Assembly: GCA_964423445.1 (NCBI GenBank)
Contig: CAYREQ010000002.1
Location: 60,641-124,640, forward strand
DNA length: 64,000 nt
Direction: 5' to 3'
Origin: an uncultured Candidatus Saccharibacteria bacterium
GTDB taxonomy: Bacteria > Patescibacteriota > Minisyncoccia > Phycocordibacterales > UBA9973
How positions within the stretch are numbered: the stretch's first letter is position 1; each line of letters opens with the position of its first letter. Both the position numbers and the translations under genes were made by a program. This document shows positions 5,896 through 59,386 of the stretch, one piece after another. The notes below the pieces were generated by a model, which was given only the letters and a program-made list of their open reading frames with translations, did not search any database and was not told the origin of the DNA.

Positions 5896-7653
5896 ATGAA
5901 CTCTCCCGTAACAAAAATTAAGGAGAGCCTGCCAATCGAAGAAATAGTCTCTTCTTACATAAAGCTAGAAAAGTCAGGCGCAAATTTTAGGGCCAAGTGT
6001 CCATTTCACAACGAAAAGACACCATCCTTTTTTGTTTCGCCAGCACGGGGGAGCTACTACTGTTTTGGATGTAGTGCTTCTGGAGATATATTTACTTTCG
6101 TGGAAGAATTTGAAGGCTTGGATTTCAAGGGGGCATTGAAACTTTTGGCTGGTAAAGCTGGAATCCAGCTAGAGAATTTTAATCCCAAAGAAGAGAGTGA
6201 AAAAGAAAGACTTTACAGAGTGATGGAAGAAGCTACAAAGTTCTTTGAAAAAAACTTAGAAAAAAATTCTGAAGTCATTACCTATCTTAAGACAAGAGGT
6301 CTAAATGATGAAAGTATTAAAAATTTCCGTATTGGATTTGTTCCTGAAGAATGGAGACTTTTATATTCTCATCTCACACAGATTGGTTGGAAAGATAATG
6401 ATATAGAAAAAGCTGGACTCGCTAAAAAGACAGAAAAGGGAATGTATGATAGATTTCGTAATCGAATCGTGTTTCCTATCTCTGACTCCAGTGGGCGAGT
6501 CATAGCCTTTTCTGGAAGACTTTTTAAAGATGATGGAAAGTCTGCAAAGTACTTGAATAGTCCAGATACACCTATCTTTAATAAATCTCTAGTATTGTTT
6601 GGCTTGGATAAAGCCAAGGAATCTATTCGTAAAAATAATTTTTCTATACTTGTCGAAGGTCAGATGGATTTGGTATTGTCTCACCAAGCAGGTTATAAAA
6701 ATACTGTAGCCACCTCTGGTACTGCCTTGTCTGATGCTACTGTAAGCAAAGAGAATGTAGTTTCAAATCTTGGACTTGTTCGTCGTTTGTCTGAAAATAT
6801 TGTACTTGCTTTTGATGGTGATAAGGCTGGATTTAGCGCATCATTAAGGGCAGGCAAGATAGCTCTATCGCTCGGCATGGACGTAAAAGTAGCCAATTTG
6901 CCACAAGGAGTAGACCCAGCAGACTTGATATCAAAAGATGGAAATGATGCTTGGCGTAGCGCCATAAGAGGCTCAAAACACCTGATAGAATTCTTTTTAG
7001 ACAAGGTTTTACTGGACGCGAGTGGAGACAATAGAAAAGCGGGACGAGAAATAAAAGAAAAAGTGCTTCCTTTTGTAAACTCAATAGAAAGCTCAATAGA
7101 GCAAATGCATTTTATTAAAAAAATATCTGATATGTCATCTATACCAGAACAGGCGTTGAAAGATGATTTAAAAAAAATTGAACAAGAGTTGAAGTTTGAA
7201 AAAAATGAAATTAAAGAAATAAAAAATACTAGCAGTGCTATATCTAAAAAAGATTATATAGAGAAAAAACTTTTAGGTATAATTGTTTGGCAGAAAGGTC
7301 TCGGTGAATCAGAGATAGATACCGATAAAATATTGAGAGATTTGAGTACAATTTCAAAGCAGAATGAAGATTATTTTTTAGAAAAAACTAAAAACAACAA
7401 AGAAGATCTTATTTTTGAAGCAGAAGTTTTTTATGGAGGAGGAATAGACCTAAAGAAAGACATAAATGAGCTTTTGTTAAACTTAGAAGAAGAATATTTA
7501 AATGAAGATTTAGCAAAGAAAATGCAAGAATTACACAGACATTCGCAAAATAAAAACCCAGAAAAAGAAAGAGAAGTCATGGAAGAATTAAAAGAAATAA
7601 ACAATAAAATACAAAATATTAAAAATAGTCGTTTAAATAATAAGTTTATATAA
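5896..7653 (+). CDS. dnaG: DNA primase
   Basis: N-terminal CHC2 zinc finger ([11 protein letters not shown]...CFGC) and a TOPRIM region (ILVEGQMD...AFDGDKAG). Sits directly upstream of rpoD, the classical dnaG-rpoD arrangement. Confidence 0.9.
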
Positions 7654-20703: not shown

Positions 20704-20738
20704 AAAATCCCCACCATTGCTGGAGGGGATTTTCATTT
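20704..20738. terminator. Bidirectional intrinsic terminator shared by the DUF192 gene (+) and rnpB (-)
   Basis: Hairpin aaaatcccc-acc-attgc-tgg-aggggatttt, with T-tracts on both strands. Confidence 0.6.
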
Positions 20739-20740
20739 TG

Positions 20741-21040
20741 TTGTAGGTATCTATAAGCCGAATTTTGTGTTTTCAACCGAGGTTGAAATGATAACAATTT
20801 GTCTAGGCTTGCAATTACTCACAAGCTCGAGCGATTCTCCCACGATTTTGCAATCGGGGCACGATCTTGCACACGCGTAAGGATTTTGCCGTTTCACCTC
20901 CGTATTGGAGCTCGTCTCTGTTCGCACCTCTACCGTTACCGGCGACGGGGATTACCCGCTACGTTTAACCATTAAAAGGGCTATGTGTTCGGACTTTCCT
21001 CTATGGTGTAAACCATAGTAGTTATCCGATACCTACCCAT
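20741..21040 (-). ncRNA. rnpB: RNase P RNA (bacterial type), compact, about 300 nt
   Basis: The reverse complement contains AGGAAAGTCCGAAC (P4 5' strand), GGAGGTGAAACGG (GNRA / J11-12 region) and ACAAAATTCGGCTTATAG (P4 3' strand). P1 pairing is GGGTAGGTATC with GATACCTAC. The segment is GC-enriched and free of ORFs. Confidence 0.8.
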
Positions 21041-22199: not shown

Positions 22200-22271
22200 T
22201 CGGGAGTAGCTCAGCGGTAGAGCGGTCGCCTGTTAAGCGATTGGTCGTAGGTTCGATCCCTACCTCCCGAG
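22200..22271 (+). tRNA. tRNA-Asn (anticodon GUU)
   Basis: Acceptor stem TCGGGAG/CTCCCGA, anticodon loop CTGTTAA, and a GGTTCGATC T-arm. Confidence 0.93.
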
Positions 22272-22275
22272 CATT

Positions 22276-22443
22276 GTGAAAAAAATATTTATAGTTTTTA
22301 TAATCCTAGCCTTTATAGTACCTTCTGTATCTTTTGCTCACCCTGGAAGGACTGATAAAAGAGGAGGACATACTTGTCGCACAAATTGTCCCAAATGGGG
22401 TCTTCGATATGGTCAATACCATTTTCACTACAAAAAAAGATAA
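22276..22443 (+). CDS. Small (55 aa) secreted Cys-containing peptide, YHYH-motif-like. Not in the ORF track (GTG start, under 60 aa)
   Basis: GTG-initiated ORF VKKIFIVFIILAFIVPSVSFAHPGRTDKRGGHTCRTNCPKWGLRYGQYHFHYKKR. It has a signal peptide plus a GGH...YHFH pattern, as in the YHYH protein family. Confidence 0.3.
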   Translation: MKKIFIVFIILAFIVPSVSFAHPGRTDKRGGHTCRTNCPKWGLRYGQYHFHYKKR

Positions 22444-22498
22444 TCTATGAGTTCAAAAATAAACAAATATTTAATTATAAATTTTAATAAAAAATAAT

Positions 22499-22879
22499 AT
22501 GAAAATAGATAGTGGAAAATATGTAGATGGGTTTGTAATACCAATAAAAAAGAAAGATTTAAAAGCATACAAAAAAATGGCAATATGGGGAGCCGAGATG
22601 TGGAAAAAGAATGGAGCTTTGGAATACTTTGAGTGTGTAGGGGATGATATAAAAGTTAAAAAAGGAATGCCACAAAAAGGCTTTATCAAGCTTGCAGGGC
22701 TTAAACCAGACGAGACTGTGGTGTTTTCTTGGATTGTATTTAAATCTCGCAAGCACAGAGACGAAGTCAATAAAAAAGTAATGAATGACCCAAGTATGAA
22801 AGATTTTGACCCTTCTACTATGCCAGTAGACATGAAGCGTTTTGTGACCGGAGGATTCAAGCCAATAGTAGAGGCTTAA
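22499..22879 (+). CDS. DUF1428-family protein
   Basis: About 126 aa. YVDGFVIPIKKKDLKAYKKMA...ALEYFECVGDD matches the DUF1428 core. Confidence 0.6.
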   Translation: MKIDSGKYVDGFVIPIKKKDLKAYKKMAIWGAEMWKKNGALEYFECVGDDIKVKKGMPQKGFIKLAGLKPDETVVFSWIVFKSRKHRDEVNKKVMNDPSMKDFDPSTMPVDMKRFVTGGFKPIVEA

Positions 22880-22887
22880 ATATAATA

Positions 22888-22920
22888 AAAAAAATCACCT
22901 TAGAAATAAGGTGATTTTTT
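22888..22920. terminator. Bidirectional intrinsic terminator
   Basis: aaaaatcacctta-gaaa-taaggtgatttttt lies between convergent genes. Confidence 0.65.
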
Positions 22921-22933
22921 CTTTGAGATGTAA

Positions 22934-23443
22934 TTATTTTACAACTACCACAGAAGCAAATATTTCTTTTGTAGGTCCACCCTCAGTTTCAATTGCAGAG
23001 ATTTTTATATCAGTCGTACCTGTATTTTCTGCTAAGAAATTCCATTCTCTAGTACCCGCATTGTTTGGTATAGTAGATGGTTTTAATCCACGGCTTTCCA
23101 ATACTAGTGAAGATTCAGCATAAGTCATTGAGATAGAAAAATATCCTCCTGTGCGCTCTGGTATGCTGACTGTAAATTTATCTCCTTTGTTAAAAGTAAA
23201 TGTCTTGCCATTATCTTTTTCGGTAATTTTGTTAGTATTTTTTTGTTCAATTTTTGGAGTAACTACTGGTTTATTTTCTGTTGTCTCTTTTGGGGTAGTA
23301 GGAATTTCCAAATTATTTTGTTCTGCGACTGGAGATGATTCCTCAACCTTTGGAGACAATGCTTTATTTTTATTAAATACAAAAACTACAATACCAATGA
23401 TTACTAATAAAACTACTAAGATATAAATTTTGTGTTTTTCCAT
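22934..23443 (-). CDS. Secreted chagasin-type cysteine-protease inhibitor (MEROPS I42-like)
   Basis: Signal anchor, a Thr/Pro/Lys-rich linker, then an Ig-like domain carrying chagasin-like loops (ERTGGYFSI; GTREWNFLAENTGTTDI). Confidence 0.5.
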   Translation of the reverse strand: MEKHKIYILVVLLVIIGIVVFVFNKNKALSPKVEESSPVAEQNNLEIPTTPKETTENKPVVTPKIEQKNTNKITEKDNGKTFTFNKGDKFTVSIPERTGGYFSISMTYAESSLVLESRGLKPSTIPNNAGTREWNFLAENTGTTDIKISAIETEGGPTKEIFASVVVVK

Positions 23444-23518
23444 ACTGGCATTATATCATAATTAAAAATATGCAAAACACAGTAAATTATTTGCATTTTT
23501 GGTTGCAGGGAGTATTAT

Positions 23519-24415
23519 GTGTTTATGACGTATTTTACTAAGAAAAATTTAATAGAAGGGCTTTTTATAGGGTTTTTGGTTGTTTTTAGCTTTAGTATTT
23601 TTACAAATAAGGCAGATGCTCAGTATATTTATTCGACAAATACCCCGAATAATCCTTCCAGTTATGCATATTATAGGCAAATATGTCCTGCAGACTATAC
23701 TCTCACAGTCTATAATACCAATCAGTATATGTGCTACAAGATTTTTGGTGGTGGTCAAGTACTTGGGGCGTCTACGACAAACTATAACTATAATTCAATA
23801 TCATCACCTAGCTTTATAGCAGGATGTTTACCAGGATATATGTACTCTGAATTAACCGGACAGAGATGTGATGGTAATTATTATTACAACGGTAATTTAA
23901 ATGGCGGTGAAGGTGATATATCAAAGTTTGATGTCAGAGATGGGAATGATATCAATCCACAAGAGGGTGATAATGATGCAGAGATTATAGAAGTAAGATT
24001 TGATGCAGATAATAGTGATATTAGACTAGATAGAATAGAGTTTGATTTTGAATTTACTGGCAATAGCAATGGGGAAGATATACCATGGAATGTTTTTGAT
24101 CAAATTAGACTTTTATCAGACGGGGACGAGATAGCACAGATGGATAGTGACAGCAGGAGCGATTGGGATAAAGAAGATGATGATACTTATAGTATAGTTT
24201 TTTCTGGTTTAAATGAAATAATAAGAGAAAATGATAGAGCAAATCTAACCTTAGAAGTCGATATAAATTCAGATATCACTGTATTAAATAACAATGATAC
24301 TTCTTGGGATATATATATTCCTGATGATGGACTAAGGGCTCGTGATGGAAATGGAAATGCTATCTATGCTGGAAATGACTCTGATAGTGTATCAATAAAC
24401 ATTGAAGAAAATTAA
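23519..24415 (+). CDS. Hypothetical secreted protein, Cys/Tyr-rich N-terminal half and Asp/Asn-rich acidic C-terminal half
   Basis: Signal peptide. 6 Cys in the first 120 residues, then DxDxD-rich segments that look like calcium-binding sites. No family recognised. Confidence 0.4.
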   Translation: MFMTYFTKKNLIEGLFIGFLVVFSFSIFTNKADAQYIYSTNTPNNPSSYAYYRQICPADYTLTVYNTNQYMCYKIFGGGQVLGASTTNYNYNSISSPSFIAGCLPGYMYSELTGQRCDGNYYYNGNLNGGEGDISKFDVRDGNDINPQEGDNDAEIIEVRFDADNSDIRLDRIEFDFEFTGNSNGEDIPWNVFDQIRLLSDGDEIAQMDSDSRSDWDKEDDDTYSIVFSGLNEIIRENDRANLTLEVDINSDITVLNNNDTSWDIYIPDDGLRARDGNGNAIYAGNDSDSVSINIEEN

Positions 24416-24523
24416 TCTATAAAATACAATGAGTTAAATTGACAAGTAGCATAAATTATGTTACGAATATTTTGTAGTAAGTTCTTCAACAACAATTCAA
24501 CAAATTTCCTTTGGAGGTAAAAG

Positions 24524-25279
24524 GTGAAAAAACTAGTTTTATTTTTGGTTTTTTTCTTGGCGTTCACAGTGAGTGCACAAGAGGAGACTACGGAAGAATC
24601 GAAGACAAACATATCAGGAACGATAGGTTTCTCTTCCATGTACCATGATTTTGAGGTCGGCGGAGATACTTTCCGCGGCTTCGTGCAAAACAATTCCTTT
24701 ACTGTCGAGCGTAGACTTAACAAAAAAGTCAGCGTTTACGCGGACTTTTGGGGGCAGTATGCCCTCGCGAAACGGCATCCAAATGAAGCCGAAGAGTTTT
24801 ACTTCGGTGGTGGTGTCGTTTACAATCCGCGACCGACGACGACGATTGATTTCTACGCCGGAAACTCAAAGCTCAACGAGCACATCAATTTACAAATGTT
24901 CGGCGTCACTGTCGAACAAGAGACGAAGGTGGGCAAGGTGCCGTTGAAGTTTTCGAACAACTTCATCGCCTTTAAATCGTCCAGACCCCACGAATTAAAC
25001 GGGGGCGTGGTAGACAAGATGAACGTATCGAGTTTCGTTGAGCTACCAAAGAAAATCAAACTCACAGGGGAAGCCGGCATCGGTTTCGACAACGGACCCC
25101 TCGGGTTTGAAGGCCCCGCCACGCTTCTTTTTTTCGAAGGGGAAGTCGAGCGGGAGATAAATAAAAATTGGAGTGCTTTTTTCACTCTTCGTCACACCCG
25201 GCCGATAGCTGGAGAGACGCTCCGAGGGCCGATTACATCGGCATCTTTTGGAATCAAGTTCAACTTCGATTTCAAATAA
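24524..25279 (+). CDS. Exported beta-strand-rich protein, outer-membrane beta-barrel-like, encoded in a GC-rich island
   Basis: GTG start with a GGAGGT RBS. Signal peptide MKKLVLFLVFFLAFTVSAQEE. Alternating hydrophobic patterns and an aromatic-rich C-terminus (FGIKFNFDFK). GC is about 50%, against about 34% genome-wide. Confidence 0.5.
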   Translation: MKKLVLFLVFFLAFTVSAQEETTEESKTNISGTIGFSSMYHDFEVGGDTFRGFVQNNSFTVERRLNKKVSVYADFWGQYALAKRHPNEAEEFYFGGGVVYNPRPTTTIDFYAGNSKLNEHINLQMFGVTVEQETKVGKVPLKFSNNFIAFKSSRPHELNGGVVDKMNVSSFVELPKKIKLTGEAGIGFDNGPLGFEGPATLLFFEGEVEREINKNWSAFFTLRHTRPIAGETLRGPITSASFGIKFNFDFK

Positions 25280-25280
25280 C

Positions 25281-25322
25281 CGCCTACCAGAAAACCGAAT
25301 GCGTTTTCTCGTAGGCGGTTTT
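25281..25322 (+). terminator. GC-rich intrinsic terminator
   Basis: CCGCCTAC...GTAGGCGG stem followed by a T-tract. Confidence 0.6.
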
Positions 25323-25382
25323 CTTTTTATATTAGTAGACTTTAATTTTTTTAGGTATATAGTCATAGAGGAGGTGACTATT

Positions 25383-25886
25383 ATGTCATTGTTGTTATTT
25401 AAAAATTTGGCGAAATACGTCGCCAAAAGTATCGTTTTAGCTATCATGATTACCTTTGTGGTCAGTATAGCTAATGGGCAAAAAAAACAGCGTCCTAAAA
25501 AAAATGTATCTAAAAAGACCGCGATGGTGAGAGTTCACAAAAAAATTCGGCGCCCAGAGCCGAAAAGGTATATCTCACCTGTCTTACCAAAAATTTTGGT
25601 ACCGTCGGAACCCTTACACAGGGAATTACATTACACTGAGGAAAGCTGGACCGACGCGATGGCGTCGAAATTCATAATCGTTTCTTTTAGGCCAAATGGT
25701 GGAATATTGTCGTATCGTGTCATGCATGATGCCACTGAAGAACTTTTTTCCATCAAGGTCGATTCGGAAACAGCTTATCTTGTTCCTGTAAAGGAAAAGA
25801 ATGGCGACCTAGAAGGGTGCTTTATGATGGCGTACTGCAAAGTACACAACACGGCACTAATCCTTTCACAAGTTCAATGTTTCTAA
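25383..25886 (+). CDS. Hypothetical exported protein in the GC-rich island
   Basis: Strong GAGGAGGTG RBS 7 nt upstream of the ATG. Signal peptide, a basic linker and a Cys-containing C-terminal domain. The track ORF's upstream extension (25248) is unlikely to be real. Confidence 0.4.
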   Translation: MSLLLFKNLAKYVAKSIVLAIMITFVVSIANGQKKQRPKKNVSKKTAMVRVHKKIRRPEPKRYISPVLPKILVPSEPLHRELHYTEESWTDAMASKFIIVSFRPNGGILSYRVMHDATEELFSIKVDSETAYLVPVKEKNGDLEGCFMMAYCKVHNTALILSQVQCF

Positions 25887-25908
25887 TATAAAGGTATTTT
25901 TTATTCAA

Positions 25909-25935
25909 GCGCCGAGTAATCTCGGCGCAATTTTT
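25909..25935. terminator. GC-rich bidirectional terminator hairpin
   Basis: gcgccgag-taat-ctcggcgc plus a T-tract, between convergent genes. Confidence 0.6.
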
Positions 25936-25947
25936 AATTTATCAAGT

Positions 25948-27513
25948 CTAAGCAAAACCAGGGAAGAAGTCTATCTTTATATTTCTTTTAGGTATACCGA
26001 TAGATTTTAAAGTCTTTTCAAAAGCATTAACCATACCATGTGGACCTGATATATAAAACATTTTATTCATATAATTTGGGACTTCTTTTTTGATAACATC
26101 AGCATCTATAAATCCACCGTACATAGAATCTCCAGCTACGGGCTCACCTTTATCTGTGATAGCATACACGGTTTTTATTCCGAGCTTCTTTTCTGCTTCA
26201 TCAAAAATTTCTTTATAAGATATATCAGTTACTTTTTTATTTGAGTACAACAGGGTGATATTTCTTTTTTCATTTGTGTCTATCAAATATTTAATCATGC
26301 TCCTAAAAGGAGTAATTCCTATACCACCCGCAATAAAGACCAATTCTTTTTGGTGATTTTTGGGTAATACGAAATCACCAGATCTCTGCCCAGCCACTAT
26401 CTCATCACCTATTTGTAGTGCCAATAATTTGTTTTTAAAACTACTAGGCTCAGGATAAAATTTTACTCCCAAATGTATCTCTTTTTCTGTGGGAGAAGAG
26501 GCGATAGTGAAATATCTTCTATTTCCACGAGTATCTGGGCTCCTGTGTTTTAGTGTCCATTCCATATATTGTCCTGGTTTAAAATTTATTTTTTCATTAT
26601 TTTCAAAAATAAAATCAAATGTATCTGTACCTACTTCTATACGTTTTTTTAATTTCAAGAAAAGCTTTTCTTTTGGGCTGACTATATACGCAAAGATATT
26701 TCCTATAACCAAAGCCAATTCTGGAGTCGAATAAAATCCTCCTATATGCAAAGCAGGTGTAAATAAAAATCCCACCAAGATACCAAAAGAAATTCGGAGC
26801 CATTTTGTAGTAGGTGAGGTGAGTGGTTCTGTCAGCATTACAAAAGCAAAGAAAAAGAAAGCAGAATTTTTTAAGGTTATCAAGAGAGTATTTAAAATAT
26901 TTGATGAATCTGAACCTTTAAAAAATGCCAAGACGGCTATGCTGAATAAAGCAGATATGAAAAAGCTCACAAATAATTCTACATGACGTATTTTTCTAAT
27001 TATCAATACTCCACCCAATATAACGATAGGAAGCATAGCAGGCGTACCTATCCACCAGCTAGCTGAATAATTTATAGCTAAAGATACGATGACTACAGCG
27101 ATAGCGACTGGATTAAAGATATGCTTTCTATTTATTGCAAATATGTATTTTGAAGCTACACCCCAGATACTGGCCCATAATGCTAGGGGCAAAAATTGTG
27201 AGTATGTCCCGCCTTCAATTGGGGTAATTATAAAAAATAGTATTAGAGCTGTGATGTATATAGATTCTACATTTGTCGGAGCTTTATATACATAAGAAAA
27301 AACAATGTGAGAAATATATGATACTACCAGTATAAACAATAGAGATATGGTTAAGTCTACAGGTGTGTAAGGTAGTAGTTTGAAAAACGATAATACCAAT
27401 GCTGACGCAAAAAAGAAACACAATACATATAGCACCACGCGGTACATAGTAGTCTTATTTAAAAAGTTGTCTATAAAATTAAGCATAAATTTTTTCTTTT
27501 GTATATTCATCAA
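25948..27513 (-). CDS. Polytopic membrane flavoprotein oxidoreductase: N-terminal multi-TM domain fused to a ferredoxin-NADP-reductase-like FAD/NAD(P)-binding module
   Basis: About 8 predicted TM helices in the first 290 aa. Then the FNR-family RxY(S/T) FAD motif (GNRRYFTIASSP) and a GGxGxxP NAD(P) motif (FIAGGIGITPF). Confidence 0.6.
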   Translation of the reverse strand: MMNIQKKKFMLNFIDNFLNKTTMYRVVLYVLCFFFASALVLSFFKLLPYTPVDLTISLLFILVVSYISHIVFSYVYKAPTNVESIYITALILFFIITPIEGGTYSQFLPLALWASIWGVASKYIFAINRKHIFNPVAIAVVIVSLAINYSASWWIGTPAMLPIVILGGVLIIRKIRHVELFVSFFISALFSIAVLAFFKGSDSSNILNTLLITLKNSAFFFFAFVMLTEPLTSPTTKWLRISFGILVGFLFTPALHIGGFYSTPELALVIGNIFAYIVSPKEKLFLKLKKRIEVGTDTFDFIFENNEKINFKPGQYMEWTLKHRSPDTRGNRRYFTIASSPTEKEIHLGVKFYPEPSSFKNKLLALQIGDEIVAGQRSGDFVLPKNHQKELVFIAGGIGITPFRSMIKYLIDTNEKRNITLLYSNKKVTDISYKEIFDEAEKKLGIKTVYAITDKGEPVAGDSMYGGFIDADVIKKEVPNYMNKMFYISGPHGMVNAFEKTLKSIGIPKRNIKIDFFPGFA

Positions 27514-28240
27514 AACCAGTAGTCATAGTAGCGATACCATTTTTATCTATAGAGTATGCTTCAAAACCCGGTAGCTCTTCTATGAAGTATATTCCATTTT
27601 TACCCATAGCAAAAGCAGCGGTCGCATACCTATCTGCTTCAAAAATATTTGGACCAATTACTGTGATACTAGTCACGTCTTCTATTTTCTCTGTCTTGTT
27701 TTTTGGGTTGTAGATATGATCTCCTCGTACGTAGTTTCCTGAGGTGGCTATTCCTTTATTATCAAGGTAAACTTTTTTTATTATCTCTCTTTTTTTATTA
27801 AATGGATTTTGAATACCGACGCACCATGATTTTCCTTGTTCATTTTTGCCAAAAGTTTCAGTGTCTCCTCCAGCTTCTACGTAGAAATTTTTTACACCTC
27901 TATCTTTTAAGATTTTACCTGCATTAAATATAGACCAGCCTTTGACTATGCCCGAAGGGTCTATTTCTCCACCCGGAGTTACAATGTCAAAATATCCATC
28001 TGTTAGATTTTTTGTCTCCTTGGCTAATTTAAAAATTTCTTTCATATCAGTACTCATATCTTTTTCCAGTATTTCTTTTCTGTTTATTTTCATTATTTCA
28101 CTATCATTTTTATAAGTACTAAATTTTTGATCTACATATTTGAAATAATTAAAAACCTCTTCAAAAAAATTTTCTTTGGCTTCAGAATCTACAATCTCTA
28201 CTATTATAGGTGTGCCCATTATGATCTCTGTCTGTTTCAT
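27479..28240 (-). CDS. apbE: FAD:protein FMN transferase (ApbE family), short form without an evident signal peptide
   Basis: ApbE-like N-terminus (IMGTPIIVEIV) and C-terminal conserved Asp/Thr-rich metal-binding region. Overlaps the downstream oxidoreductase gene and abuts the upstream FMN-binding gene. Confidence 0.65.
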   Translation of the reverse strand: MKQTEIIMGTPIIVEIVDSEAKENFFEEVFNYFKYVDQKFSTYKNDSEIMKINRKEILEKDMSTDMKEIFKLAKETKNLTDGYFDIVTPGGEIDPSGIVKGWSIFNAGKILKDRGVKNFYVEAGGDTETFGKNEQGKSWCVGIQNPFNKKREIIKKVYLDNKGIATSGNYVRGDHIYNPKNKTEKIEDVTSITVIGPNIFEADRYATAAFAMGKNGIYFIEELPGFEAYSIDKNGIATMTTGFDEYTKEKIYA

Positions 28241-28791
28241 TAAATTTTTGCTTTACTGAGTGCACCAGATAGAGACTCACGAAATGCGGCGCTAGTAAAA
28301 GATGCACCAGACACAGTATTTACATTTGCATCTTGGGCTACTATTGCCTCACTGGTTAGATAGGGCATAGCACGCTCATTTATACGCACAGAGGTCTGTC
28401 TGCCTTGTGGGTGGTCCAAGAACTGCACATCTGTTATTTTACCTCCAGAAATTACTGCTTTTACTTGGACATTGCCGTAATAGGCATCTGCTACTGGTCC
28501 TGTATAAGATCCATCTCTATACTTCCCATTGTTTATGACAGGAGGAGTGGGTGTAGTAGGAGTAGGTGTGGTTGGTTTTGTATCTCCACTTTTTGGGGTG
28601 CTAGGAGTCGTATTTGTGACAGGAGTAGAATTTTCTGTAGTTTTATTATAGGTAGGTAAGAGTAGGCTAATATCGGACTTATTATTGTTTAAAGTTGATA
28701 TTATTGGTACATCCGCTCCCAAAATTCTCACATATAGTGTGTAGGCAGAAAATACAAAAATTAAAGCCAAAGATAAGAATACTTTTTTCAT
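28240..28791 (-). CDS. Exported FMN-binding-domain protein (NqrC/RnfG-like FMN_bind), a likely flavinylation substrate
   Basis: Signal anchor, a Thr/Pro-rich linker, then an FMN_bind domain (YTGPVADAYYGNVQVKAVISGGKITDV...SGASFTSAAF). Covalent FMN is usually attached at the S/T in the D(A/G)x(S/T)GAS(F/Y) type motif. Confidence 0.65.
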   Translation of the reverse strand: MKKVFLSLALIFVFSAYTLYVRILGADVPIISTLNNNKSDISLLLPTYNKTTENSTPVTNTTPSTPKSGDTKPTTPTPTTPTPPVINNGKYRDGSYTGPVADAYYGNVQVKAVISGGKITDVQFLDHPQGRQTSVRINERAMPYLTSEAIVAQDANVNTVSGASFTSAAFRESLSGALSKAKI

Positions 28792-47863: not shown

Positions 47864-48262
47864 ATGCCAAACCTAAAAAAAGTCATTTCACTACATCAAG
47901 CATCCATCATTTCTGGTTACCATCAGGATTATTTGAGCTCGCTTATTAGAAAAGGAGAAATAAATGGAGAGAAGATGGGTGGTAATTGGCTGACTACCGA
48001 AGAAGAGATAGAGAGGTATATTTTCAAGCAAAAAATTCGAAACAAAAATTGGCTATTTAGGAATTTTTTACTTCTTATAAAAAAGACAAACAAGAGTTTG
48101 CTCTATGCAGTCGTGTGCCTGATTATTTTTTCTACAGGCTTGTATTTTTACAACAAAAATAGTGCAAGTGAAATTAAAACAAACACTCAGACAAATAATA
48201 TAAAAATTTCCAATATTAATCAGCTTGGCATCAACGAAGAATTTAAAGAATTAAAATTTTAA
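47864..48262 (+). CDS. Membrane-tethered HTH_17/excisionase-like DNA-binding protein
   Basis: N-terminal HTH (ISLHQASIISGYHQDYLSSLIRKGEINGEKMGGNWLTTEEEIERYI) followed by a TM helix. Its stop overlaps the start of the giant gene (TAATG). Confidence 0.45.
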   Translation: MPNLKKVISLHQASIISGYHQDYLSSLIRKGEINGEKMGGNWLTTEEEIERYIFKQKIRNKNWLFRNFLLLIKKTNKSLLYAVVCLIIFSTGLYFYNKNSASEIKTNTQTNNIKISNINQLGINEEFKELKF

Positions 48263-51200
48263 TGAAAACTTTTTTTAATTTCAAAAAAATACGTTTCATT
48301 TTTTCTTCACTATTAGTTTTGGTGTTTTCTTTTTTCTTGGCATCAAATTTTGTTTATGCTGCTGCTGGTGTGCCAATGCTAATAAATTTTCAAGGACGAT
48401 TGATGGACAACACAGGTGCATTACTCGGCTCTGCTGGTGGTACAGATTACTGTTATAAATTTTCTATTTGGGATGCTACTACTGGTGGAAGTAAAATTTG
48501 GCCATCTGGTTCTCCATCTACAAATACTTTGGTCACTCGTCTCGGAGTCTTTGATGCGACAATTGGAAGTGCAGATACTTTAGATCTTACTTTTACAGAT
48601 GACCAAGCTTATGTAGAAGTAGAAGTGGCAACAAAAGTGGGAGGCTCATGTACTACAGGTGGTGATGAAGTTTTTGAATCTCTTTCTCCTCGTCCACAAA
48701 TCGTCTCAAGTGGTTTTGCGATAAATTCAAAAACTGTAGGTGGATTTACTCCTGCTCAATCTGCGACAAATAATCAAATTCCAGTACTCACCTCTGGTGC
48801 GATCGTCCTTGGTCATGCGACCACTGCCGGATTAAATTCAACTGGATCAAATGCACTTACCATCGATGCAGGAACTTCTGGAATTTTAAATTTAAATAAT
48901 AATTCTAGTGGAAATATTTTACTTAGTAATGGTGTCGGCTCTACTGGATGTACACTCACAGGTGCCTCCGGTGCATTTGCATGTACCGGAGCAATCACAG
49001 GATCAAACCTCTCAGGAACAAACACCGGAGATCAGACATGGAATGGAATACTAGCACCTACAGGAACTCAGACATTAACCTTTGACGATGGAGAATTAAA
49101 TGCATGGACAGTATCATCTGACACAGAAACATTCTGGACGACAACAGCAAATTCTCTAACAACAGGAACCTTACTTTCTTCGTCTACGACTGGTTTAACT
49201 ACTGGGAAAGTTTTAGATTTGACTTTAGGTTCTGCACTTACCACTGGTGGTGCGATTAATATATCTGGTGCTTCTTACAATCCCGGAGCAGGCAATACAG
49301 GTAATGTTGCTAGTATTGCTTTTACTCATGCTGCTGGAGCAGCTTCTACTTCTACTGTAAATGGATTGAATATCGCATTCACTAATTCTTCTGGAAATAC
49401 AAGTGGTACATCTGTGACTTCAGGAATTAACATCGCTCCTACTGTAACTGCAAATGGTACACCAGGAACAGAAGAAACTTATGGTATAAGAATTCAATCT
49501 GCTGCAGGTACTGCTGGTTTTGGAACTCAAAATAATTATGGTATTAGAATTGGAAGGCAAGATGTTTCTAGTTCTGAAAATGCATATGGTATCTATCTTG
49601 ATGTACCACAAATTTCTTCTTCTGATAAGACTGGGATATATGTCGGAAGTGTCAGTGTGTCTGGTCAAAAAGGTATAAATGTAGCGGGAATGGTTGGTTC
49701 AAATACAATAGGTGTTGAAATAGGGGCAACTATGAATACAGGAGCTAGTTTTTCAGGTAAATATTTATCTGTAGGTAATCCAACCACAGGTTTTATAGCA
49801 ACAGCTAGTGATACTGGAAATTATATTTATGCTAATCGTAACAATACTATTAGTGGTGGCAATACTTTGACAGTAAGTGGATCATTGGCATCACTACTAT
49901 CTACATGTAGTGGCGCAGGAACATGTAATGACTCTGCAAAGATTTTAGAATTAACTCAAAGTTATGCGTCTGCAACTGGTGATGTTATTGCAATTTCAAA
50001 TGCTGGTTCTGGTAAAGACATTAGTGGTACAAGTAATACATGGAATGTTTCCAAGGCAGGTGCTGCTGTCTTTGTCGGTGTAAACTCCGGAGCAGGACTA
50101 CTCCAAGGTCAACTCGGTCTCACAGTTACTGGAGCAGCAGTAAATTTAAATGCTTCATCAAACTTTGCTACAAACATAAATACTGGAACAAGTACTGGTA
50201 CAGTCACTATCGGAGGTACAGCAGGTAACACTATTAATATCGGAAGTGATAATACTGTAGCGGATACTATTACTCTAGGATCTGCACTGGATTCTCTTGC
50301 TATCTCGTCAACTAATTTCAAAGTTAGTTCTGGTGGTGCTATCACCGGAGCAACTGGTCTAGTCTCTTCCGGTACTATCCAATTATCATCTCTAACTTCA
50401 AACGGACCTCTATATACAAGTGCAGGTAACGGAACTCTCACCACTACTGCACCAACTAGTGGAGCTATCGGTTATTGGTCAAGAAGTGGAACTACACTTT
50501 CACAAACTACTGCAAATGATTTGGTATCAATATCTACAAATTCCACAGTCGCTTCAAATAAAACTTTTGAATCATTACAAACAGGTGCCACCTCAGGCAC
50601 AGATTATGCAGGATATTTCTCTAATACAGGCGCTGCTACAACTAATGTCGGTCTGTATGCTACAGCAACAGGTGGTAGTAATAACTATGCTGCTATTTTT
50701 GAAGCAGGCAGAGTCGGTGTTGGTGTTACAGCGCCTCTCTTCCAATTACAAGTTGCTGGCACCACTTTGATTCAGCCAGACTCTACTTGGAGTTCTGGGG
50801 ATACTTCTATTTTATTGTTTTCTGACGATAGTTCAAATTTTATAAAAGCTTACTTCACGCCAGCAGCTAACTCAGGCAGTTTAGAGGTTCGAGGTTATTC
50901 TGGAGTTGACCTCACAACAAATTTGGGAGTAGTCTTGCACTCTACTCAACAAGCAATGACAAACATCGGTAGCAACAACGATGCTGATGCATTGCTCGAA
51001 ATTAATGGTAATCGTACGGTTACTGCTTGGGGTCTAAACGGTATTCAACTACAAGCTTCTGCTTCTACCTTCACGGATTCATCTACTGCTATTTCTGGCA
51101 CAGCAACAAATGCAGTCTTCAACAGCTTTGGTATTCCAACTCTAGCGGCATCAAACGCCACAGTTACGACAACCAACGCTGCTACTCTATATGTAGCTGG

Positions 51201-54200
51201 AGCTCCTACTGCAGGCACAAACCAAACTATTACCAATGCTTACTCACTTTGGGTAGATGCAGGCACAGCAAGATTTGATGGCGATGTTACAATCTCTGGT
51301 ACTTGTACTGGTTGTGCATCTACTTGGAACGCAATCACAAACCCTACAGGCACTCAATCACTTACATTTGATGATGCAGAATTAAACGCATGGACAGTAT
51401 CATCTGACACAGAGACTTTCCAAACTATTACTGCAAACTCACTAACTACTGGAAAGATACTTTCACTTGCTTCTTCTTCATTAACTACAGGAACATTACT
51501 TGATTTGTCTAGTAACGGTACAGCAGCAGGAGCATCACAAACAGGATTAAATATTTCTCTTGCTGGAACAAATGGAACAAGTGGTATTACTTCTTACGGT
51601 GCACAAATATCAAATGTGCACGCAGGTGGTACTTCTACAAATGTAGCTTTGCAATTATCTGCAACAAATGGAACTACTGCTAACTACGCTTTGTTAGTTC
51701 CAGCTTCAAGTGGAAGTGTCGGTATCGGAACCACAACACCAATAGCTGTGTTTGATGTGCAAGGTGCAAGTTATTCTTTGGGTGGTACAGGAGATGCTAG
51801 TGGAAATGGTTCCACTACTGCATTCGATGCCAGTACTATTCTTAATTATTTAAACGGTGGCTCAATTACTCAAGCAAACTATGCAAACGCAGATATTAAT
51901 GGTGATGGCTTAGTAAGCTTCTTAGATGCTGAATTGATTTCTCAGTATGTTTCTACAGCAATCACTCTTTCACAGGCTCAGCATTCAGTTGGAAAATATA
52001 TTGCTGGTAGAGCAATCTCAATTGCTTATAACGAGAATGTTGGTATTGGATATTTAACTACAGCTCCTGATAGAAAATTAGATGTCTATGATGCATCCAA
52101 CCCACAATTGAGATTAACCCAAGCTGATAATTCTGTGTACAGTGATTTTAAAATGGATAGCAATGGCGACTTGATTATTGTCGTTGATGGAGCTACAAAC
52201 CAGTTAGTTTTGGATAATGGCGGTAACATCGGTATCGGTGACACCACCCCAGCTGCCCTATTTACAGTAGGTAACACTGACCTCTTCCAAGTAAACTCTT
52301 CAGGTGCAATTGCTGCAGTAGTAGGTATCACAAACACAGGAATCAATACAAATACTTTCCAATCTGCCACAGCACTTACAGTAGCAAGAACAGGTACAAA
52401 CTATGCATTGCAAGTAGACACAAACACAGCTTCAAGTGAGACAGGATTAAAAATTACTGCAGCTGCTGCAGCTGGAGGAGTTGCTCTCGCTACAATTTCT
52501 TCAGGTACAGATGAATTCATGACTATCGATGCTAAAGGTGCAGGTGAAGTAAGAATCGGAGGAATTTCTACCGGCTCCATATTATTTGCTGGAGGTTCTG
52601 GTTCTTCTGGTTGTACTATTACTACAGCTGGTGCACTCACTTGTTCTGGTGCTGGATCTTTCTCAAACCTCTCAGGTACAAACACAGGAGACCAGACAAT
52701 TACTCTAACAGGTGATGTTACAGGAAGTGGTACAGGAAGTTTTGCTACTACAATTGCTGCTGACTCAGTAGCTCTAACTACAGATACAACAGGTAACTAT
52801 GTTCAATCTATTACAAACGGTTCTGGTATCTCAGGAGGTAACGGAGGATCTGAAGGTGCCGCACTTACTCTTGCACTCGGTGCACTCACTGCAGATTGGA
52901 ATCAAACTGGAGCATTCACTATTTCTCTAAACAATTCTTCTGCTGGACTTAAGATGTTAGAAAATGGAGGAACTCCTACACTCTTTGGTATCTTTGATGT
53001 AGCTGATCTTACTTCAACTGACAAAACATATACCTTCCCAGATACTTCAGGAACAGTATGTATCTCCGGAGGAACTTGTGCTGCTTCTTCTGTAGTTTGG
53101 AATACAATCACAAACCCTACAGGCACTCAATCACTAACTTTTGATGACGGAGAATTAAATGCATGGACAGTATCATCTGACACAGAAACTTTCCAGACTA
53201 TTACTGCAAACTCACTTACTACAGGCATATTATTATCAACCTCATCCACTGCCTTAACTACGGGGAGAGTATTGAGTGCAACTTTGGGTTCCGCCCTTAC
53301 CACAGGTGGCCTACTTTCTACTACTGGTGCATCATACAATCCAGGTGCATCTAATACTGGTAGTCTTATAAATTTAGCTTTTACTAATGCTGCTAATAAT
53401 ACTTCAGGCAGCTCGAATGTTACCGGTATAAATATTTCTCCGACAATTTCGGCTGCTGGTTCTGGTGGTAATCAATATACTTTCGGTATTGATATTCAAG
53501 ACGCTGCGGGTACGCCCGGTGTTGGAACTCAAGATATTGTTGGTATAAGAATTGGTAATCAAGGTAGAAGTGGCGCAGAAACTAGTTATGGTTTAATAGT
53601 AAATTCTCAGAGTGGTTCGACTAATAACTATTCCGCAATCTTTTCAGGAGGTAATTTGGGTATAGGTGATTCAACTCCAAACTCACTATTTACAGTTGGT
53701 TTTAATGATTTATTCCAAATCAACACCACAGGTCAAATAGGTTCACAACAAGCTCCAGTATCTGATTATCTTTTTGCTCTAGCTGGTACAACTGGAAATG
53801 ACAATTCAAGAATTATTGATATTACTCAAGCGAATAATACGTTAGAAGATTCTATTGTAATAAAAATAGCAAATACAGCCAATGTTGGTGTAGTTGACAA
53901 TGTGGGATGGGTTATTTACAATACAGACTTTAGACTTACTCCTACTGCTACAATTACCAATGATGGTGTAGCAGATTTATTTGGAAGTTATAATAATGTT
54001 AATCCATCTAATATTACTTTATCTGATGGAGTTAGTGATGCATTTGCAAGAGGTAGCCTCAATTACGTGGCCGGTAGCATTATATTTAATAGTGCATCTG
54101 GTTCAGATAGTTATGGGGAAGTAGGGGTTGGAGGTACCGTGGAAAGCTCCCCTACTTTAACTAGTGTGAGTGCGGGTTCTAGCTTCAATACCTATGCTGG

Positions 54201-57200
54201 GCAATTTATTAATAGTGCTACATCTGCTGGTAATGCAGATTTAGCCTCTACTGGATACGGTGTTTACTCTCTGATAAATGGAAATTTGACTACATCTGGA
54301 GACACTCTTCATTATGGAGGTTATTTTAATACTAGCGGTACAGCCGATACAAATTACGGGATATATTCTACAGTAACAGGAGCCACCACAAATTACGCAG
54401 GAATATTTACAGGTGGAAATGTAGGTATCGGTATCACTGCACCTACATCTGTCTTGCATGTACAACAATCTGCAGATTCAGCAGTCACTGCGACTCCAGT
54501 AGCTTTTGATGTAAACAGTGTCGGTGCAAGTGGTGAACTCACTGCAAGTAGCAGCGTACAGACTTTTGCTCGTATCGCTCCCACAGTCAACCAAACTTCT
54601 ACTGCAGGCTATACAGCATTACTAATAAATGCTACACAGACAGCCACAGGTAGTGGAGCAAAATTATTACAAGATTGGCAAGTAGGTGGTTCATCTGTCG
54701 CAAAGATAGATAGTGCAGGTGCTCTTACAGTTACTTCATGTACAGGCTGTGGAGGTGGAGCAACAGCTTGGACTAGCATAGCAGCTCCAGTCGGCACCCA
54801 GTCACTAACCTTCGATGACGGAGAATTAAATTCATGGACAGTATCAAGTGATACAGAAACTTTCCAGACTATCACTGCAAACTCACTTACTACAGGTATA
54901 TTAAATTCATATGTTGCAAATGCTCTCACTACTGGTGAAGTATTAAATATTTCTCACACTACATCTGTGATAGCTGATGGAGGTTCACTTATCAAAGCAT
55001 CTTCTACGTCAGCAGATACAGGAGGCTCTACTCAAGGTGTATTGCTAGACCTTTCTTCTACTGCATCCACTGCAGGTACACAATTCTTGCAGACATACTC
55101 TGGTCTTACCACAGGTATTGGACAAAAGATTGTAACAAATGGTCTCACTACTGGTACAGCATTTATTATTCCACACACTACAAGTGTGATTGCAAACGGT
55201 GGATCACTTGCAAGACTTTCTTCTACGAGTAATGATACATCCACAACCACTGGTGTACTTCTAGATTTGTCTTCTACTGCATCCACTGCAGGTACACAAT
55301 TCTTGCAGACATACTCTGGGCTAACTACTGGTATTGGACAATCAATCGTGGGTAATGCTCTCACCACTGGCTCACTACTTAGTATTTCTTCAAACGGTAC
55401 AGGAGGTACTACTGGCCAAAAAGGAATTAGTGTAGATTTGTCTGGAAGCAATGGTAGTGGATCACAGACTACTTATGGTGGATACTTCAGTAATACTCAT
55501 GGAGGTAGTGGCACAAACGTCGCACTATATACTACAGCAAGTGGAGGTACTACAAACCTTGGATTAAATGTAAACGCTGGGCAAGTGCTCATCGGAGGTA
55601 CTACTTTATCTACTAGTACTGAAGCAAAAATTAATATAGTTTCCTCTATGGCTTCAAACGGTTCTACTACTGCTATCGCTGGTATACATGGAGAATTTAC
55701 AATAAATCCATCAGGTGGTGGTACACAAGTCGGAAATCGTTTTGTCATGAACAATGCTCCTACATCTAGTGCAAACACTTCTATCAACCAAATAATAAGA
55801 ACTATAGACAACACATCACTAGCAAACTTGGTTCGTGGTATTGAAGTGGTATCAAATGCTGGTAGTAATACTGCAGGTACAAACACAGGTATCCGAACCA
55901 CAGGGGCTACATTTGGTATTCAGGCTATTACATCAGGTACAGCCGGAGGTGTGGCATTACCTGCTGCAATTTATGCAGAAAATACTGGTACAACTCAAGG
56001 AGATATAGCAAGATTTTACACAGGCTCTATGACTTCTGCACCATCGATGGTTCAGCTTTATCATGAAACTTCTACATTTACAGGAGCTGCAATACTTATA
56101 GATATGGCAGTAGGTGCAGCAGACGACACAAAATTTACCGGTAATTTCTTGGACTTTAAAGAGAGAAGTGTTCAGAGATTTAAAGTAACAGATCAAGGAG
56201 TAACCTCCATGGGTCTTGGCAACACTGCATCTACAAATGCTGTATGTTCTAGTCTCGCAAATGCCACAGGCCCTACTGCAGGTACGGCATATGAAATACG
56301 AGATTGTAATGCTGCTCCAGCCGCTGACTACGCCGAGATGTATCCAGTAGAATCCGGAGTAGAATTTGGAGACATAGTAGCTACGGGTACAGAGATGGTA
56401 AATACATATGATGTGACAGATGGAAATATTGATTGGACAAAAATAAAAGGAAAAATTACTAGACTTGAAAAATCTACACAAGCTTACCAGAAAAATATTA
56501 TAGGAATAGTATCAGACAACTTTGGAGACTTTACTTCAGCGGGTCACAACATAAAAGATGCTGATAATCCTATGCCTATCGCTTTGAATGGTCGTGTGCC
56601 AGTAAAAGTGTCTAATAGCTCAGCACCTATATTACCTGGAGATTATTTGACTACATCAGGAGATGAACCTGGTAAAGCTATAAAAGCTACCAAGGCAGGC
56701 ATTGTGATAGGTAAAGCTATAGAATCTTGGAATCCAAATACAGGTAAAGCCACAGTCATGGTTTATGTAGAACAGGGATATTACAACGGAGAAAATATAA
56801 ACAATTACACTGGCCTCGTATTAAATGGCTCTATAGAAGACTCTGCTTTGATTTTAGAAAAATTATTGAGTGACCAAACTGAATATAATGCACTCAATGT
56901 TTCTGAATTACTCACTGATCGTGTAGTAGCAGGACTAGAGATGATTACTCCTAGATTGGTAGCTTCAGTGATAAATACAAAGACACTAAATGTTTCCGAA
57001 GGTGCGACAATCAATGGCCTCGTAGTATTCGGAGGCACACCAGAGCTTCCTGGTAAAGTCACATTTGATTCACAAGTAGAATTTAACCTACCTCCAATAT
57101 TCAACAAAGATACTGCTGGTTTTGCTGTGGTCAAAGAAGGGGACAAGAGCGTACGTGTAGAATTTGAAGAACCATATATGGTGACACCGGTCGTCACTGC

Positions 57201-59195: not shown

Positions 59196-59386
59196 AACTC
59201 TATAATCCTACAATATATATAAATAAAATTTATTTATAAAAAATAGTAAATTTACTATACAAATTTTTTTTGTATTAATGTATAATTATTAGTATAAATT
59301 TTGTGAAAAACTTTTTTATAAAAACTATTAAATTATTTTACTCTTACACAGAGTTTTTTTCTCATATTAAATTTAATAAAAAATTT

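Follow-up and report, generated by a model that had tools for sequence, protein, structure and literature searches.

CPR bacteria (Patescibacteria) are treated as monoderm, and porins are thought to have been lost from them along with the outer membrane. This locus raises the question of how a low-GC genome of the group comes to hold two GC-rich genes, the first of which appears to encode a small outer-membrane channel, and where such a protein could act. By the window we mean the whole stretch of DNA that was analysed, 64 kb long and with a GC content of 0.362.

The GC-rich two-gene island within this low-GC genome, which belongs to an ultra-small CPR bacterium, is real, as the composition of both genes confirms (positions in Table 1). 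ORF1 has a GC content of 0.474 and a GC3 of 0.560, and ORF2 0.405 and 0.440, as compared to 0.32-0.37 and 0.19-0.34 in the genes adjoining the island. The mean GC3 over 53 ORFs of the window is 0.261 (sd 0.062), and the highest value besides these two is 0.339. In 300-bp windows the GC climbs from 0.28-0.34 to 0.50 over 24650-25250, stays at 0.41-0.44 across ORF2, and is back at 0.30-0.33 past 25950. The share of NCG codons is 8.4% in ORF1 and 7.2% in ORF2 (background 1.1%), and the CpG observed/expected ratio is 1.44 and 1.21 as compared to 0.64 for the window. Both starts are preceded at 6-8 nt by GGAGG, a site found at none of 38 other genes (2 of the 40 window genes in total), and the same motif precedes the ORF2 homologues of the relatives L002 and L009. 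The compositional break, the strong ribosome-binding sites and the GC-rich terminators described in the initial annotation are thus all present. Its statement that nothing else in the window resembles the island is correct for GC3, CpG and ribosome-binding sites but too wide for raw GC, which reaches 45-51% at 60-62 kb because a glycine-rich protein is encoded there.

Table 1. Positions of the island genes, their signals and the bordering features within the window.
Feature	Position	Strand	Evidence or conservation	Remark
tRNA-Asn(GTT)	22200..22272	+	ARAGORN, Rfam	One border of the variable interval 22273-25947 containing the island
TTGACA, candidate -35 box 5' of ORF1	24439..24444	+	Inside upstream block conserved between window and L002	
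GGAGG Shine-Dalgarno, ORF1	24513..24517	+	Conserved in L002	6 nt ahead of GTG start
ORF1, 251 aa	24524..25279	+		Sec signal peptide, then predicted 12-stranded transmembrane β-barrel
ORF1 intrinsic terminator	25278..25329	+		GC-rich hairpin 25278-25320, then T-tract
Promoter-like site for ORF2, TAGACT-16-TATAGT	25336..25363	+	Consensus scan only	
GGAGG Shine-Dalgarno, ORF2	25370..25374	+		8 nt ahead of ATG
ORF2, 167 aa	25383..25886	+		Signal/anchor helix, cationic linker, β-rich C-terminal domain
ORF2 intrinsic terminator, GCGCCGAG-TAAT-CTCGGCGC then T-run	25909..25935	+	Consensus scan	
RnfD/NqrB-like + FAD/NAD-binding fusion gene	25948..27513	-	Pfam matches	Convergent with ORF2; conserved resident flank

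ORF1 is closed by a strong terminator and a promoter-like site stands ahead of ORF2, so that the two genes are probably separate transcription units. The hairpin of the ORF1 terminator, which is also inverted repeat I8, folds with -24.7 kcal/mol (z -6.8), and that of ORF2 (25909-25928, also GC-rich) with -16.9 kcal/mol (z -5.3). The consensus scan gave an additional promoter-like site at 24402-24430.

The island is not recent. In the comparison with L002, dS amounts to 0.97 in ORF1 and ranges from 0.48 to 0.78 in the flanking genes, which implies that the island predates the split between the two genomes and speaks against the recent transfer first suggested. The dN/dS of ORF1 is 0.045; it is a real gene under strong purifying selection. 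Between the window and L009 the synonymous sites are saturated, and the enrichment in GC3, CpG and NCG codons is retained in all three lineages. Under neutral amelioration the foreign codon signature should have faded, and it has not.

The place where the island lies varies between relatives. The fusion gene on its 3' side, here called the NQR-like gene, is the first of an FMN_bind-ApbE-NQR-like block, and the distance from the tRNA-Asn to this gene is 3.7 kb in the window, with five genes, and at least 8.6 kb in L002. In L016 the corresponding distance, between a tRNA-Asn of 96% identity and the 3' end of the NQR-like gene, is 426 bp. We scanned the flanks, up to 6 kb and fewer where contigs end, of 80 metagenome loci with NQR-like orthologues, some of them 67-73% identical, and neither island gene was present in the DNA fetched. 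Conserved synteny of the kind expected of an ancient resident is therefore found in a narrow clade and not in the flanks scanned from these 80 other relatives. A functional tie of the island to the ApbE/FMN_bind/RnfD-like block was considered and rejected, as the block is conserved in the 80 relatives without the island in the flanks scanned. The deviant GC, codon and dinucleotide composition, the variable interval starting from a tRNA-Asn and the patchy distribution are all reminiscent of tRNA-adjacent genomic islands. Contrary to these, no integrase or mobility gene was found in the interval, and when the surroundings of the island were searched for att-like direct repeats or inverted repeats, only AT-rich matches at chance level turned up. 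The GC-rich genes are also 2.2 kb from the tRNA with genes of native composition between, and the island is old enough to have diverged together with its flanks. Scans of viral contigs with ORF1 and ORF2 were negative for a phage origin, and the matches in BFVD, at 7-13% identity, were no more than generic OMP folds.

The signal peptide, amphipathic strands and aromatic C-terminal motif noted initially in the first product were all recovered. By inspection, the signal peptide of ORF1 comprises residues 1-18 (VSA/Q; nt 24524-24577), so that the N-terminus reads MKKLVLFLVFFLAFTVSA/QEE, and the predicted model has a helix at residues 2-17. An N-terminal Sec signal peptide was likewise found by inspection in 14 of 14 family members. 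The public gene calls cut the signal peptide of ORF1 short, which hides what kind of protein it is. The mature part of about 232 residues is barrel throughout in the model. The barrel is closed, and its dyad-amphipathic strands run antiparallel and are even in number, 12 of them being predicted between residues 28 and 250, with the first at residue 28. The C-terminus, GIKFNFDFK, contains a GxxFxF motif. G243 is invariant in 14/14 sequences and F246 in the eight closest, and eight of the 14 members have a terminal F or Y, while ORF1 of the window ends F-K. Judged from the alignment, the C-terminal motif of the family resembles the β-signal (GxxOxO and a terminal aromatic residue).

Among 1.84 billion proteins the ORF1 family has 13 representatives (clusters at 50% identity), all uncharacterised. 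Sequence searches of Pfam, NCBIfam and the PDB gave no family for ORF1, ORF2 or their homologues, the best PDB hit to ORF1 being an unrelated protein at E 2.7. There is no paralogue of ORF1 within the window, and a scan of genome contigs with the ORF1 sequence alone recovered a close relative only. In the literature on barrels, porins, outer membranes and BamA in CPR, Patescibacteria, Parcubacteria and Saccharibacteria we found no such protein described.

We made comparisons with known barrels. The small monomeric porins of the KdgM/NanC type (PDB 4pr7, 4fqe, 2wjr; VhGalP 8xua) are like ORF1 at the level of the predicted fold only; their identity to it is 5-11%, ORF1 has no Pfam family or PDB sequence match, and they belong to proteobacterial outer membranes whereas ORF1 is encoded in a CPR genome. 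The profile of the COG4313/Phenol_MetA_deg channels (PF13557; PDB 4rl8) scores 15.7 bits (E 0.016) with ORF1, under the gathering cut-off of 22 bits. That match is limited to residues 57-113, and only two of the 14 family members have any match. Known features of the COG4313 channels are an N-terminal helix and a pathway for hydrophobic substrates; ORF1 was compared to these channels by profile score. Autotransporter β-domains (type Va; NalP 1uyn/1uyo, EstA 3kvn, Hbp 3aeh, EspP 2qom) differ in that ORF1, whose barrel begins at residue 28 of 251, has neither a passenger domain nor a pore-filling α-helix, and it has no match to the Pfam Autotransporter family. ORF2 does not supply the missing part, being a separate gene past a terminator and missing from other loci of the family.

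ORF2 is a predicted exported or anchored protein restricted to this clade. An N-terminal signal or anchor helix (residues 1-32) is followed by a variable linker rich in Lys, Arg and Pro (residues 33-78, pI 11.6), and in a three-sequence alignment by a conserved β-rich C-terminal domain (residues 79-167) with three Cys and the end QVQCF; the AF2 model is of low confidence (pLDDT 45). Only three ORF2 clusters were found among 5.8 billion, all from the clade of the window, and no homologue in any candidate donor. An obligatory pair of ORF1 and ORF2 was rejected: apart from the terminator and promoter-like site between them, an opposite-strand gene separates the two homologues in L009, and ORF2 is missing beside other members of the ORF1 family. 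In this reading the polycationic linker of ORF2 would be disordered and followed by a small conserved C-terminal domain, and ORF2 would not be an obligatory partner of the barrel.

Every carrier contig of the ORF1 family that could be placed is of Patescibacteria/Parcubacteria type. RpoC of the window shares a 90% cluster with 'Candidatus Paceibacterota', L002/L007 is labelled Candidatus Saccharibacteria, and the nearest named relatives of PolA from L005 are Patescibacteria, Liptonbacteria, Parcubacteria and Jorgensenbacteria. GluRS and Def of L093, which also encodes a sortase, match those of a 'Patescibacteria group bacterium' exactly; for L006, L011, L012 and L095 the taxonomy is by gene content or synteny only. 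On contigs with 42-58% GC the family genes deviate at most 2 GC points from their own contig, with the exception of L006 (51.5% against 58.4%), and the contigs with 51-58% GC have CpG observed/expected ratios of 1.18-1.37, similar to the island. Three of these higher-GC contigs have a common synteny around the family gene (FtsK, an RNase H-like gene and an aminotransferase).

On balance, we lean towards an old lateral transfer within the CPR, from a higher-GC to a low-GC lineage, of two Sec-exported envelope genes of which ORF1 encodes a channel-type barrel. The recipient would be a low-GC Paceibacterota/Parcubacteria lineage and the landing site the variable interval between the tRNA-Asn and the FMN_bind-ApbE-RnfD-like block, with the acquisition taking place before the window genome and L002 diverged. 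The two envelope genes would be transcribed separately and their products exported by Sec. ORF1 would lose its 18-residue signal peptide and fold into a small 12-stranded β-barrel, with a hydrophobic belt around the outside and a polar lumen, whose strands are linked by short turns at one end and by longer loops at the other. This predicted fold is built like a monomeric outer-membrane channel of KdgM/NanC/COG4313 size, and we infer that it may serve as a passive pore in some lipid layer beyond the CPR cytoplasmic membrane. That layer would be a partner's or host's outer membrane or else an unrecognised outer lipid layer of these Parcubacteria. Enrichment retained in three lineages despite saturated dS counts against the transfer, as a single old event followed by neutral amelioration fails to explain it. 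It also counts against it that ORF2 lacks a homologue in the candidate donors and that no integrase, att-like repeat or phage relative was found.

Possible, but to be held more tentatively, is that the ORF1 proteins are genuine transmembrane porin-type barrels restricted to the CPR. They may sit in an unrecognised outer lipid layer of Parcubacteria, or be self-inserting channels exported into a partner's outer membrane to tap its periplasm, in either case spreading laterally among CPR as a host-interaction module whose codon signature and strong Shine-Dalgarno sites are kept by selection or repeated transfer. A precedent for an OMP-type barrel working in a membrane other than the producer's is chlamydial OmpA, which is delivered to mitochondria (PMC12890168), and one reading of ORF1 needs such a function in a foreign membrane. 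In the OmpA-type cases, however, the producer is diderm and BAM assembles the barrel first, whereas for ORF1 both the delivery and the host are hypothetical.

It is rather unlikely that the pair is a vertically inherited resident, its GC- and CpG-rich codons and Shine-Dalgarno sites being kept by gene-specific selection, for instance to produce an abundant envelope protein at a very high level, and no transfer having taken place. An anomaly that persists in three lineages in spite of saturated dS is what such selection would give, and the barrel-ORF2-NQR synteny is shared. In the NJ tree the window and L002 group with L009 and P0012, at a bootstrap of only 62%, which fits descent within the clade, and the family genes in other CPR contigs have SD-like motifs that most of their neighbours are without. 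However, RpoB/C, EF-Ts, S2, GAPDH and MreB of the window have an ordinary GC3 of 0.23-0.27 and no Shine-Dalgarno site, and high-expression codon bias was set aside as the source of the GC3 shift, RpoB/C, EF-Ts, S2 and GAPDH showing none. Translationally preferred codons do not typically include NCG and CGG, and the signature matches the bulk composition of the higher-GC carriers. Moreover, the relatives at 67-73% NQR identity, which are closer than L009, have no island beside the NQR-like gene.

The CPR have been described as monoderm (PMC8871954; 10.1101/2021.05.31.446380), and placed in a monoderm clade said to descend from diderm ancestors by loss of the outer membrane (10.1101/2021.05.31.446380). 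The barrel could then be a vestige, a porin that a few Parcubacteria kept after their outer membrane was lost and later exchanged among themselves. The ORF1 family comprises two deep branches with Patescibacteria in both, and the conserved β-signal-like C-terminus also agrees with such a history, but we consider it improbable: the family amounts to just 13 clusters, the gene is in 0 of the 80 NQR-like loci in the DNA fetched, and there is no sequence link to a diderm OMP family, neither in Pfam, where the best match stays below the cut-off, nor among PDB sequences.

Even less probable is a secreted, soluble or toxin-like barrel, such as a pore-former against competitors, in place of a resident envelope channel. 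The Sec signal, the small size and the short loops are in keeping with it, and domains for outer-membrane biogenesis were found neither in the 27 ORFs scanned, of about 53 in the window, nor in the flanks of about 10 kb of eight carrier contigs. A recent acquisition from a Gram-negative donor, which might be the episymbiont's host, is highly improbable; the predicted OMP fold, the β-signal-like C-terminus and the foreign composition would suit it, but neither an exhaustive HMMER scan nor a word-indexed search gave a homologue traceable to a diderm contig, all placed carriers are Patescibacteria, and dS is about 1 against L002. The Gram-negative or host donor proposed at first does not agree with these results. 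We give hardly any credence to an assembly chimera, also proposed, or a binning contaminant, for which the compositional break is the sole support: the same junctions, identical or homologous, occur in four other, independent assemblies (L001-L004; a Logan contig, SRR12487045, a JGI contig, 3300045372, and the NCBI assemblies GCA_964472335.1 and GCA_020049755.1), and island and flanks diverge together at about 85% nucleotide identity.

A conserved protein under selection, Sec-exported and with the predicted architecture of a small outer-membrane channel, clashes with the monoderm picture of the CPR. Curated databases lack the family, and the only contigs to which it has been traced are of CPR type; ORF1 is therefore a clonable candidate for testing the ideas of an outer lipid layer and of a pore in the host envelope. 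If the transfer we favour took place, the locus would also be a clean example of gene exchange within the CPR across very different GC contents.

The GC-rich two-gene island reported in the initial annotation was confirmed. In 300-bp windows the GC content rises from 0.28-0.34 to 0.50 across 24650-25250, is 0.41-0.44 over ORF2 and 0.30-0.33 past 25950. The compositional anomaly is located at synonymous sites: GC3 is 0.560 in ORF1, the barrel gene, and 0.440 in ORF2, as compared to a mean of 0.261 (sd 0.062) for the 53 ORFs of the window, where the highest value after the island genes is 0.339. NCG codons make up 8.4% of ORF1 and 7.2% of ORF2 (background 1.1%), and the observed/expected CpG ratio is 1.44 and 1.21, respectively, as compared to 0.64. 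Both genes end at GC-rich terminator hairpins, -24.7 kcal/mol (z -6.8) for ORF1 and -16.9 kcal/mol (z -5.3) for ORF2, and both have a GGAGG 6-8 nt 5' of the start. None of the 38 other window genes has this motif, and only one of them has any Shine-Dalgarno 4-mer. In several host genes a TATAAT-like box precedes the start codon by a few nt; together with the near-absence of Shine-Dalgarno sites this suggests leaderless or non-SD initiation in the host. On other CPR contigs, the ORF1-family genes also tend to have SD-like motifs while their neighbours are without. The claim that nothing else in the window resembles the island holds for GC3 and GGAGG, but not for raw GC, which is also 45-51% at 60-62 kb. 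The glycine codons of a very large Gly/Thr-rich ORF, and not its third positions, are the cause of this, and the same ORF explains the strong G skew there; it has a signal or anchor segment and runs past the window end.

Positions of the island genes and of other features in the window and in related contigs
Sequence	Positions	Strand	Feature
Window	20738-21037	-	Bacterial RNase P class A RNA
Window	22273-25947		Interval from tRNA-Asn to NQR-like gene: DUF1428, p169, p298, ORF1, ORF2
Window	24524-25279		ORF1, GTG start, 251 aa
Window	25383-25886		ORF2, 167 aa
Window	25948-28791	-	NQR-like gene (RnfD/NqrB-like + FAD/NAD-binding fusion, 521 aa), ApbE flavin transferase, FMN_bind protein
Window	48262-57624	+	3120-aa protein, dockerin type I domain
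Window	59279-64000	+	Gly/Thr-rich ORF, >1570 aa
L002	64-8690		Interval from tRNA-Asn to NQR-like gene
L002	5330-8694		Two extra low-GC genes (971 aa, 148 aa) between ORF2 and NQR-like gene
L006	8868-9452	+	Second OMP-like gene, 194 aa
L014	7520-8800		GC-rich segment directly after NQR-like gene
L016	7546-7971		Interval from tRNA-Asn to NQR-like gene

A chimeric assembly, one of the suggested explanations, does not agree with the finding of an identical ORF2 with the same flanks in a Logan contig (SRR12487045) and a JGI contig, and of the gene pair, with GC changing at the same point relative to the genes, in GCA_964472335.1 (L002/L007, a close relative labelled 'uncultured Candidatus Saccharibacteria bacterium') and in a contig of GCA_020049755.1 (L001). 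A recent transfer fares no better. Between the window and L002, the amino-acid identity is 93% for ORF1, 65% for ORF2 and 79-90% for the flanking genes, and dS is 0.97, 1.06 and 0.48-0.78, respectively, so the island must already have been present in the common ancestor of both genomes. The ORF1 dN/dS of 0.045 implies that the gene is strongly constrained.

The convergent neighbour of ORF2 is the NQR-like gene, and in L016 its 3' end is separated by 426 bp from a tRNA-Asn of 96% identity. The corresponding interval is 3.7 kb in the window and at least 8.6 kb in L002, with partly different gene content, and the island therefore sits in a variable interval beside the tRNA. It is an old insertion. 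The two extra L002 genes are absent from the window and their products had no Pfam family. No integrase or att repeats were found at the interval, and no phage relatives of the island genes. At 80 metagenome loci with an NQR-like orthologue (41-73% identity), no ORF1- or ORF2-family genes were present in the sequence retrieved, which extended to at most 6 kb on each side as the contig allowed. One other contig, L014, has a segment of 50-58% GC in a 40% GC background, with a roughly duplicated element (starts near 7523 and 7803) and a membrane ORF of 191 aa that is rich in His and Cys, a hint that foreign DNA has a hotspot here. ApbE and/or FMN_bind genes lie beside the NQR-like gene in most of the 27 loci checked among the 80, and the block resembles an extracytosolic flavinylated redox module, here encoded by a CPR genome.

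The OMP-like nature of the first product was upheld. An AlphaFold2 model of ORF1 from a 14-sequence alignment (pLDDT 90, pTM 0.82) has 12 β-strands after the signal helix, with connections of 2-4 residues on one side and 3-10 on the other, and family-averaged hydropathy gives each strand a hydrophobic and a polar face. A 12-stranded OMP-type barrel is thus confidently predicted. GxxF/YxF is kept at the C-terminus of the family, where the last residue is F or Y in 8 of 14 members. In the public gene call (P0003, 213 aa, on a 137,685-bp contig) Met39 is taken as the start, so that the signal peptide is lost, as is most of strand 1 (window 24524-24637); a true start at the upstream GTG is supported by the homologues as well as by the GGAGG site. 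ORF1 is, as read from sequence, a real and selected protein that is predicted to be exported. Pfam, NCBIfam and PDB sequence searches gave no match at threshold, the best being Phenol_MetA_deg (E 0.016, 15.7 bits, cut-off 22 bits). A word-indexed search of 5.8 billion clusters gave the close relative as the sole match. When 1.84 billion representatives were scanned exhaustively with HMMER, 13 proteins were recovered (six with E < 1e-30), all 242-259 aa with a signal peptide.

This family is tiny and unclassified, and all carriers that could be placed are CPR. The window has the gene content that small CPR genomes typically show, and its RpoC shares a 90% cluster with a representative named 'Candidatus Paceibacterota bacterium'. 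Among outside homologues, P0006 is the closest (38% identity); it is on the 57% GC contig L005, where the adjacent PolA has its nearest named relatives in Patescibacteria, Liptonbacteria, Parcubacteria, Jorgensenbacteria and Brennerbacteria. Synteny with L005 is seen in L010 and L095, and L011 PolA ranked above the named CPR matches. On the distant branch, GluRS and Def of L093 (P0016) match 'Patescibacteria group bacterium' exactly; this contig also has a sortase gene. None of the carriers was traceable to a diderm, which argues against a Gram-negative donor. The surprise at such a barrel in a monoderm was well founded, since CPR are assigned a monoderm envelope (PMC8871954; 10.1101/2021.05.31.446380); no outer-membrane biogenesis domains were found among the window genes scanned, and no OMP-type barrel from CPR came up in full-text literature searches. 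The second OMP-like gene in L006, directly 3' of P0007, encodes a signal peptide, an alternating hydrophobic pattern and the C-terminus MRAYF, with no Pfam or NCBIfam match, so this carrier may have several barrel proteins.

The foreign origin of the island was supported, as its composition matches the higher-GC CPR carriers. Gene and contig GC are 0.559 and 0.569 in L005, 0.515 and 0.584 in L006, 0.555 and 0.546 in L010, 0.528 and 0.509 in L011, and 0.437 and 0.420 in L012; of these five, only L006 differs by more than 2 points. The CpG ratio of the four 51-58% GC contigs is 1.18-1.37, similar to the island, as compared to 0.92 in L012 and 0.64-0.77 in low-GC genomes. This agreement suggests a donor from the higher-GC Parcubacteria.

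A third lineage, L008 and L009 (37% GC), has the order barrel, OmdA (opposite strand), ORF2 homologue, NQR-like gene, with a P0012-like barrel of 30% identity to ORF1 and a GC3 of 0.48 and 0.51 as compared to about 0.3 in neighbours. A neighbour-joining tree groups the window and L002 with L009 and P0012, with a bootstrap of only 62%. Two observations do not agree with a simple history. Synonymous sites are saturated between the window and L009 (dS about 2, NQR-like gene), yet the foreign codon signature is retained. Furthermore, conservation of ORF1 is the highest in its neighbourhood at short distance and the lowest at long distance. Both could stem from repeated transfers to this one interval or from selection on the composition of these particular genes.

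ORF1 would form a passive channel of small size, placed in a lipid layer beyond the cytoplasmic membrane, either the outer membrane of a partner cell or an outer layer of the CPR cell that has gone unrecognised. The sole precedent cited is porins able to function in a foreign membrane (PMC12890168).

ORF2 is represented by only three clusters, all in the window's clade, and was not found beside other ORF1-family members. A terminator and a promoter-like site separate it from ORF1, and we treat it as part of the compositional island, not as an established partner of ORF1. Two parts of the protein are conserved, a signal or anchor segment at the N-terminus and a C-terminal domain of about 90 aa that contains three Cys and ends in QVQCF; the Lys/Arg/Pro-rich linker between them (pI 11.6) is variable. 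The AF2 model of ORF2 is unreliable (pLDDT 45).

Elsewhere in the window, the dockerin protein has a proline-rich C-terminus and is probably a giant surface protein. The RNase P RNA (112 bits) appears to be a shortened form, 300 nt as compared to the 367-position model.
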